The translations under genes were made by a program, and so were the position numbers. Below are positions 9,871-10,973 of a stretch of 64,000 nucleotides of DNA, piece by piece. Numbering within the stretch: position 1 is the first letter of the stretch; each line of letters starts with the position of its first letter. The notes beneath the pieces are model-generated. The model worked only from the letters and a program-made list of their open reading frames with translations. It made no database searches and was not told the origin of the DNA. The DNA is taken from the NCBI RefSeq assembly GCF_036507355.1, contig NZ_AP027877.1; one strand, written 5' to 3'. Source of the stretch: Escherichia coli. GTDB taxonomy: Bacteria > Pseudomonadota > Gammaproteobacteria > Enterobacterales > Enterobacteriaceae.

Positions 9871-10683
9871 CCCATGATCCGCACGCACATTCCGGTGGGA
9901 TCGGTCGCCTGCATTATGCTCGAACCGGGAACGAGAGTTTCCCACGCGGCGGTGCATCTGGCCGCCACGGTGGGAACACTGCTGGTCTGGGTCGGTGAAG
10001 CGGGCGTTCGCGTTTACTCTTCCGGACAACCCGGAGGGGCGCGGGCAGATAAATTACTCTACCAGGCAAAGCTGGCTTTAACGGAAGATCTACGCCTGAA
10101 GGTGGTGCGCAAAATGTATGAATTACGTTTTCGTGAGCCACCGCCAGCTCGCCGTTCAGTGGATCAGCTACGGGGAATTGAGGGATCCCGCGTTCGCCAG
10201 ACCTATGCATTACTGGCGAAACAATATGGTGTGAAATGGAATGGTCGCAAATACGATCCTAAAGACTGGGAAAAAGGCGATGTTGTGAATCGCTGCATCA
10301 GTGCTGCCACATCATGTCTGTACGGTATTTCTGAAGCGGCAGTATTAGCCGCGGGATATGCGCCCGCTATTGGATTTATTCATAGTGGCAAACCGCTTTC
10401 ATTTGTTTATGACATAGCCGATATCATTAAATTTGATTCGGTTGTGCCAAAGGCATTTGAAATAGCGGCAAGACACCCGGCAGAACCTGATAAAGAAGTC
10501 AGATTAGCCTGTCGCGATATTTTCCGTAGCACTAAGTTAACGGGCAAATTAATACCGTTAATTGAGGAAGTCCTTGCTGCAGGTGAAATTGAACCACCAC
10601 AACCCGCGCCGGATATGTTACCGCCTGCCATCCCTGAACCTGAAACGCTGGGTGATAGTGGTCACCGGGGGCGCGGCGGATGA
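9871..10683 (+). pseudogene. cas1: cas1, 5'-truncated (lacks about the first 35-40 codons); C-terminal catalytic domain retained
   Basis: Homology to type I-E Cas1 starts at IRTHIPVGSVACIMLEPGTRVSHAAV and runs to the stop; upstream in-frame codons (MGQWHPGASMPPAKCVIP) derive from the casD remnant in another frame; stop overlaps cas2 start (GATGAGCATG). Confidence 0.8.
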
Positions 10684-10973
10684 GCATGGTCGTGGTTGTT
10701 ACAGAAAATGTCCCTCCGCGCTTACGTGGACGGCTCGCAATCTGGCTATTGGAAGTGCGTGCCGGTGTGTATGTTGGTGATACATCAAAACGTATTCGGG
10801 AGATGATCTGGCAGCAAATTACCCAACTGGCTGGTTGCGGAAATGTGGTGATGGCCTGGGCGACCAATACCGAGTCGGGTTTTGAATTTCAGACCTGGGG
10901 AGAAAACAGACGTATTCCGGTGGATTTGGATGGGTTACGTTTGGTTTCTTTTCTTCCTGTTGATAATCAATAG
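10680..10973 (+). CDS. cas2: CRISPR-associated endoribonuclease Cas2 (type I-E)
   Basis: 97-aa [37 protein letters not shown]; overlaps the cas1 stop. Confidence 0.9.

Follow-up and report, generated by a model that had tools for sequence, protein, structure and literature searches.

A cas1 gene that has lost its 5′ end and kept its catalytic region, followed directly by a complete cas2 and a short CRISPR array, may be either an adaptation module that still works in reduced form or the debris of a locus that has stopped working. Such an arrangement is present in the stretch of Escherichia coli DNA analysed here (64,000 nucleotides, hereafter the window), and the preliminary description had read it as a residual, possibly working adaptation module, with a frozen array as the fallback. 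Our analysis points strongly to the second reading: the cas1 sequence is very probably a non-functional remnant, that is, a recent pseudogene in a decaying type I-E locus, and the locus has almost certainly ceased to provide immunity. The truncation of Cas1 and the completeness of cas2 stood up to closer inspection, and a frozen array fits the data; the working module was not supported, and the loss of all Cascade genes and of the Cas3 C terminus had escaped the earlier account.

Two deletions and an insertion in a cas-E1 locus

The locus is of type I-E, belongs to the cas-E1 variant, and occupies the usual E. coli site between cysH and iap. The window reads queD, cysJIH, hok, cas3 ... cas2, CRISPR, iap, cysDNC, ftsB, and ispDF, followed by the fhlA/hyp/hyc region, and within it an 853-residue ORF on the minus strand (26105-28666) is presumably mutS, an assignment made by size and position only. 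A search of the 64-kb window for the second I-E array (CRISPR-II) returned no further repeat at ≤3 mismatches; from the K-12 map, we presume that this array would fall beyond the left edge of the window. Several neighbors deserve mention in their own right. A Hok/Gef-family type I toxin gene (6220-6372) sits between cysH and cas3, as it does in other cas-E1 strains. Genes for VdcB-like and VdcC-like proteins (UbiX/UbiD-type hydroxyarylic acid decarboxylase) and for a serine/threonine phosphatase (23035-25999) lie upstream of the presumed mutS, in what we take to be part of the segment between rpoS and mutS that varies among E. coli lineages. A 257-residue ORF (43677-44450) gave no NCBIfam match at E ≤ 1e-10.

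The closest intact counterparts are the cas-E1 loci of O157:H7 and O55:H7 strains (e.g., NZ_CP038366.1 and NZ_CP038394.1), which lie at the same site in the order cysH-hok-cas3 ... cas2-leader-array-iap and share 95 to 98% DNA identity with the retained segments; the window differs from them in carrying an insertion sequence in cas3 and a mutated first repeat, and its Cas1 remnant departs from theirs at two residues. With the intact loci of O55:H7 DEC5A (L001) and O157:H7 F6667 (L005) as references for blastn, one collinear block comprised the 3′ end of cysH, hok, and the first 182 nt of cas3 (5901-6746), and another ran from the last base of cas1 codon 39 through cas2, the leader, and the array (9876-11220). 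The 5′ fragment of cas3 (6565-6746, plus strand) is collinear with the intact gene in both references, matches PF18019 (Cas3_HD) over the start of the HD domain, and is ended by an IS1 element of 768 bp (6747-7514), whose insA and insB ORFs lie on the minus strand and both match the IS1 transposase family NF033558. The element is inserted 182 nt into cas3 and is flanked by a 9-bp target duplication, CGGGCTGGC, at 6738-6746 and 7515-7523. Beyond it, cas3 continues on the plus strand (7515-9481) with the rest of the HD domain and the helicase domains, as judged from Pfam domains and from blastn to the intact locus, where this segment corresponds to positions 1514-3480 of L001 (cas3 coding sequence, 1341-4040). 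The gene breaks off ∼560 nt before its end, and its reading frame extends through 26 nt of cas7 DNA to a stop at 9507. By exact protein look-up, the cas3 fragment protein is on record in GenBank for E. coli as BED21180.1; this match and that of the cas5′ ORF (below) were the grounds for rejecting an origin in Shigella, which the IS1 had suggested.

Relative to the intact O157/O55 loci, two deletions account for a total of 4.9 kb of missing DNA, and both junctions could be mapped to the base by blastn and by reading the sequence across them. The gap at junction 1 (9481/9482) amounts to 3,520 bp and takes in the 3′ end of cas3, the 97-bp cas3-casA spacer, both cse1 and cse2, and cas7 up to nt ∼755. 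The 1,405 bp lost at junction 2 (9876/9877) run from within cas5, through all of cas6e, to nt 116 of cas1. Between the junctions lies a 396-bp island (9482-9877) made up of the 3′ end of cas7 and the 5′ end of cas5. The cas7e portion consists of the last 99 codons plus the stop (9482-9781, plus strand; blastn, and PF09344 positions 244-333 of 361), and the cas5e portion consists of the first 86 nt, with the strong native Shine-Dalgarno sequence retained (9792-9877, plus strand; blastn, anti-SD ΔG of −7.9 kcal/mol). No microhomology is present at junction 1 and only 2 bp (GA) at junction 2; the junctions thus look like products of illegitimate recombination rather than of IS- or repeat-mediated loss. 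Of the complete type I-E gene set, nothing remains of cse1, cse2, or cas6e; stubs of 300 nt and 86 nt are what is left of cas7 and cas5, respectively; and cas3, interrupted by IS1, stops ∼560 nt short of its 3′ end.

Junction 2 also created a new ATG at 9874-9876, for the cas5 side ends in ...CCCATGA and the cas1 side then continues with TCCGC.... This is the in-frame codon from which the peptide MIRTHIPVGS would begin; it had earlier been placed at 9871, which needs correction. An in-frame Cas5-Cas1 fusion was considered and ruled out, as cas1 is shifted to the +1 frame with respect to cas5.

Because the two deletions are only 396 bp apart, we considered whether the junctions might be an assembly or sequencing artefact. 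Exact-protein look-ups found the 287-residue ORF that contains the cas1 remnant, together with an uninterrupted 721-residue truncated cas3 product, in four other samples (GCA_905398585.1, GCA_016660925.1, and the Logan assemblies of ERR3330519 and SRR31122001). These carriers differ from the window by 0 to 3 substitutions over 6 to 13 kb and have both junctions wherever the contig reaches them. Since identical junctions recur in four independent assemblies made from different samples by different pipelines, an artefact is excluded for practical purposes, and we give that explanation a negligible probability. The IS1 insertion in cas3 is private to the window genome, being absent from all four of the other assemblies with the cas deletions. 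The deletions therefore arose in a single recent clone and preceded IS1, whose insertion was the latest event. Neither junction was found in 5,426 complete RefSeq E. coli genomes. Two RefSeq matches that seemed to cover the junction query in full proved on inspection to be arranged differently: in both, cas5e is shortened, cas6e is not annotated, and cas1 is intact.

What the cas1 remnant keeps and what it lacks

The cas1e remnant consists of codons 40-307 plus the stop (9877-10683, plus strand), as defined by alignment to PDB entries, by NCBIfam, and by comparison with intact O157/O55 cas1e. Several lines of evidence, which lie far beyond what chance would produce, bear out the view that this is an N-terminally truncated Cas1 with an intact catalytic region. 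The 287-residue ORF (9820-10683) matches PF01867 with an E value of 1.7e-13 (50.8 bits against a cut-off of 22.3) and the NCBIfam model TIGR03638 (cas1_ECOLI) with 345.5 bits against a cut-off of 215.6, covering model positions 36-268 of 269 only. It aligns with residues 40-304 of K-12 Cas1 (PDB 3NKD and others; E 8e-151) such that ORF residue 20 pairs with K-12 residue 40; the first 19 residues of the ORF that begins at ATG 9820 are not Cas1 and come from an out-of-frame reading of cas5 DNA. In comparison with K-12 Cas1 (YgbT; PDB 3NKD/4P6I/5DS4/5WFE), the remnant is ∼88% identical over residues 40-304 and the C-terminal tail is conserved, whereas residues 1-39 are absent. The motifs GIEGSR, IHSGKP, and YDIADI are kept, and the catalytic metal-binding residues are aligned with and identical to those of K-12 and occupy invariant columns among 30 homologues; in K-12 numbering we take them to be E141, H208, D218, and D221. 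The remnant differs from intact O157/O55 cas1e at six codons, four of them synonymous and two non-synonymous, which is too few for dN/dS to inform on selection. With a frame that is open to the natural stop, catalytic residues in place, and only these six codon differences, the sequence alone leaves room for some product.

Part of such a product might even fold. A construct of the YgbT C-terminal domain (PDB 3NKE; 200 residues, approximately 92-291) was crystallized alone, so the retained α-helical catalytic domain could fold without the N-terminal domain, if made. That protein is a laboratory construct, whereas the remnant in the window additionally carries a 56-residue broken half-domain, and we know of no integrase activity of a Cas1 fragment of this type.

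The lost part is substantial. The full-length, two-domain architecture of Cas1e (N-terminal β domain plus C-terminal α domain) is not present: residues 1-39 are absent, and profile positions 1-35 are unmatched. These 39 residues amount to ∼40% of the N-terminal domain and correspond to VTFVPLSPIPLKDRTSMIFLQYGQIDVLDGAFVLIDKTG in the intact cas-E1 Cas1e. In an alignment of 30 Cas1e proteins (83-96% identity), 20 of the 39 positions are invariant, Tyr22 included, and by this measure the lost segment is conserved to the same degree as the remainder of Cas1e. The AlphaFold model of the full-length protein, which is of moderate confidence only (mean pLDDT 71.6), places strands at residues 17-20, 23-28, and 31-36 in the lost segment and at 41-44, 51-54, 74-79, and 82-87 in the part that is kept. 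The deletion is thus predicted to remove three core β-strands of the N-terminal domain and not a peripheral one, and the single N-terminal strand supposed to be missing in the preliminary description proves to be 39 residues with three predicted core strands and Tyr22. When the truncated protein was modeled, the pLDDT of the remaining N-terminal domain (full-length residues 41-80) fell from 67-76 to 32-50, and most of the catalytic domain stayed at ∼75-95; we treat the fall, a property of the models, as a soft indication only.

The loss of Tyr22 bears on function. In the Cas1-Cas2 complex, Tyr22 of one catalytic subunit and Tyr22 of the other enclose a 23-bp duplex between them and set the length of the spacer (PMC10011333). 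The Y22A substitution raises the prespacer Kd ∼7-fold and drastically lowers spacer uptake in vivo, and in vitro integration persists (bioRxiv 10.1101/602623). In other subtypes, the N-terminal domain of Cas1 likewise bears a wedge residue and contacts Cas2. The prespacer wedge is present in the intact cas-E1 Cas1e as Tyr22 and falls within the deleted segment of the window.

These findings allow a first weighing of the proposal that Cas1 without residues 1-39, made from ATG 9820 or ATG 9874, pairs with Cas2 and inserts spacers, perhaps with relaxed length control. The open reading frame, the intact catalytic residues, the C-terminal domain that folds alone in 3NKE, and the in vitro integration by Y22A Cas1-Cas2 are what one would cite for it. 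Against these stand the loss of Tyr22 and of three predicted core strands of the β domain, the low confidence of the rest of that domain in the truncated model, and the near loss of uptake in vivo that Y22A causes by itself. Together with the expression signals, the arrays, and the effector genes considered below, they make the proposal hard to credit.

Expression signals, cas2, and the array

In the intact operon, cas1 starts with a GTG in a 4-nt overlap with the cas6e stop, preceded by a Shine-Dalgarno sequence with a pairing energy of −5.8 kcal/mol. None of this is left in the window: the deletion took the native GTG together with its ribosome-binding site and ended the coupling to cas6e. 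Among the substitutes, ATG 9820 has an anti-SD pairing energy of +0.6 kcal/mol and ATG 9874 one of −2.1 kcal/mol, against a window-wide mean of −2.1 kcal/mol for 1,081 ATGs; ATG 9847 follows a modest SD-like stretch (−4.7 kcal/mol). Stronger than any of these is the signal of cas5 itself, whose ATG at 9792 keeps its native Shine-Dalgarno sequence (−7.9 kcal/mol). From there, the ORF list gives a chimeric 68-residue ORF (9792-9998, plus strand) that encodes 28 Cas5 residues and then continues out of frame through cas1 DNA, and GenBank carries it as the hypothetical protein BED21182.1. This ORF spans ATG 9820, 9847, and 9874 in another frame; as a strongly initiated ORF thus overlaps the candidate start codons, ribosomes most likely translate this part in a frame other than that of cas1. 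The suggestion that the remnant could initiate at ATG 9820, or at the ATG now placed at 9874, is not upheld, given that neither codon has a Shine-Dalgarno sequence and both lie within the cas5′ ORF.

Transcription signals are similarly deficient. A consensus scan of the plus strand from 7530 to 11300 found no promoter-like site, and the regional count of such sites was not above the shuffled expectation. The cas3-casA spacer falls within deletion 1; in K-12, this spacer is the site of the Cascade-operon promoter. Transcription from the cas3 promoter would need to cross the inverted IS1 in the window genome. The sole upstream candidate, a promoter-like hybrid at the end of IS1 (7501-7530), joins TTGGCA in the element to GATTAT in cas3 across an 18-nt spacer (only 9 of 12 positions) and could drive read-through into the cas3 remainder. 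The native start and the ribosome-binding site that a functional cas1 would have are thus missing, and the operon promoter probably is too; the public assembly GCA_016660925.1 lists no protein for what remains of cas1. We infer that the remnant is without expression and without integrase activity. As a separate observation, an internal, in-frame ATG at 10114 (Cas1 M119) follows a strong SD-like sequence, AAGGTGG (−8.6 kcal/mol), and the protein sequence around it is as in intact cas1e.

The companion gene is in good order. The cas2e gene (10680-10973, plus strand) encodes a full-length protein of 97 residues that matches PF09707 (positions 1-86 of 86) and TIGR01873 (1-87 of 87) from end to end; the protein is identical to that of the intact O157/O55 loci, and the gene has one synonymous difference. 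Its ATG overlaps the cas1 TGA as ATGA at 10680-10683, and it has an SD-like run of its own (−8.6 kcal/mol). The earlier statement that cas2 is complete and overlaps cas1 is thus correct. Downstream, the leader is of the cas-E1 type (10974-11069, plus strand) and 100% identical to that of the intact O157/O55 loci. The array (11070-11281, plus strand) consists of three 29-nt repeats (at 11070, 11131, and 11192), three 32-nt spacers, and a degenerate terminal repeat. An intact cas2 overlapping cas1, a leader identical to that of intact loci, and an in-frame ATG 9874 exactly at the junction could all be taken as further points for a module that still acquires spacers, and they are answered in part by the start signals: no Shine-Dalgarno sequence at 9820 or 9874, no promoter-like site, and an overlapping ORF in another frame.

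The content of the array speaks in the same direction. Spacers 2 and 3 are ancestral trailer spacers shared by O157/O55. Spacer 1 occurs in one other complete genome only, that of GF131, where it has one mismatch and is the second-to-last of the ten spacers found there. A recent acquisition of spacer 1 was thereby ruled out: its place near the trailer end of that longer array indicates that it is old as well, and from these comparisons none of the three spacers looks recent. The first repeat (11070-11098) carries a C9G substitution at 11078 that breaks the C9:G18 pair of the stem, and repeats 2 and 3 are without it. Spacer acquisition duplicates repeat 1. Because acquisition copies this repeat and C9G is confined to it, no spacer has been added since C9G arose. 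The other carriers have the same three-spacer array with C9G in repeat 1 only, wherever their contigs reach the array.

A comparison of spacer content among related isolates had been proposed as a check on whether the array is frozen. It revealed no turnover: the arrays of the carriers are identical where contigs cover them, and the C9G repeat was never propagated. As the carriers are near-clonal and the time depth is small, this agreement fits a frozen array but is weak evidence of stasis. For a working module, identical arrays in all carriers and an unpropagated mutation in repeat 1 are again unfavorable, and so is the gene content, for with Cas6e, Cascade, and a complete Cas3 gone, no effector remains to use any new spacer. 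We therefore consider it highly improbable that residual adaptation still takes place; Tyr22, three predicted core strands, and the native start signals are lost, and the carriers' arrays are identical. A variant of this idea fares equally poorly. In it, Cas1 without the Tyr22 ruler would be made from ATG 9874 or 9847 and, with Cas2, would form an integrase or nuclease of altered properties, such as an integrase with no length ruler or a Cas2-independent nuclease of branched DNA. We consider it highly improbable. If true, it would amount to a natural experiment showing that some activity of Cas1 does not require half of its N-terminal domain, and an active truncated protein would inform on whether the β domain of Cas1 can be dispensed with; nothing here points that way.

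Decay of the locus in one recent clone

A role outside CRISPR immunity also has to be weighed, in which the remnant is kept as a free catalytic-domain nuclease of Cas1 acting on branched DNA, or for the sake of Cas2 alone. Early work reported that E. coli Cas1 is a nuclease on branched DNA and suggested a role in repair, but the review that summarizes it calls the repair role mistaken (PMC10011333). The internal ATG 10114, with its pairing energy of −8.6 kcal/mol, would provide one route to a product, and the SD-like run of cas2 (also −8.6 kcal/mol) would favor synthesis of Cas2; ATG 10114 and its SD-like stretch, however, lie in sequence common to intact cas1e and so would not appear to be specific to this allele. 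The allele occurs only in one near-clonal lineage, being present in four assemblies besides that of the window and in none of the 5,426 complete RefSeq genomes, and on that account shows no sign of selection; other strains, GF131 among them, have dispensed with cas1-cas2 altogether. A non-CRISPR role is improbable, if slightly less so than continued adaptation.

A non-functional remnant in a decaying locus accommodates the whole of the arrangement. Two deletions, probably by illegitimate recombination, took everything from mid-cas3 to cas1 codon 40 except for the 396-bp cas7/cas5 island, which was spared, and IS1 landed in cas3 later, in one genome only. What is left of cas1 is a stump that keeps the catalytic domain but neither residues 1-39 nor the start codon with its ribosome-binding site; the coupling to cas6e and the upstream cas3-casA spacer are gone as well. 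Neither spacer acquisition nor crRNA processing nor interference would be expected of such a locus, and the three-spacer array would then be a fossil. That cas2, the leader, and the array survive is explained by deletions that ended short of them and by too little time for point mutations; decay by point mutation has barely begun, and this is why the remnant still appears intact to a reader of the sequence. The fallback of the preliminary description, a frozen array, fits the same data, with one array in all carriers and C9G in repeat 1 only.

Comparable events have occurred elsewhere at this locus. In GF131 (L007, NZ_CP172134.1, 7328-10136), cas3 is cut ∼30 nt beyond the position of junction 1 in the window and joined directly to a ten-spacer array, cas1-cas2 having been deleted altogether. 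In VTB96935v (L008, NZ_CP178662.1, 6023-6502), a shortened cas5e precedes cas1e with no annotated cas6e between them, and cas1 is intact. These two strains represent independent decay events at the same locus. For both E. coli and Shigella, degenerate CRISPR2.1/cas-E loci have been described in which IS elements have inserted, cas genes are incomplete or interrupted, and DNA has been deleted (Almendros et al. 2014, PMC3903273, Fig. 5). The window shows the same kind of decay at the same locus as those arrangements, and its two junctions define a small clone. We conclude that decay of this kind is already well documented in E. coli and Shigella and that the specific allele is rare but unremarkable.

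One practical consequence follows for annotation. Gene callers report the 287-residue ORF as Cas1 with a Pfam match, so pipelines that look for cas1, cas2, and an array would score this strain wrongly, as competent for adaptation or as a type I-E carrier; this is a matter of annotation hygiene and little beyond. For the biology of these systems, the locus offers a clean, datable example of type I-E erosion, in which microhomology-poor internal deletions were followed by an IS insertion and in which the adaptation genes and the array were the last to survive because of their position.
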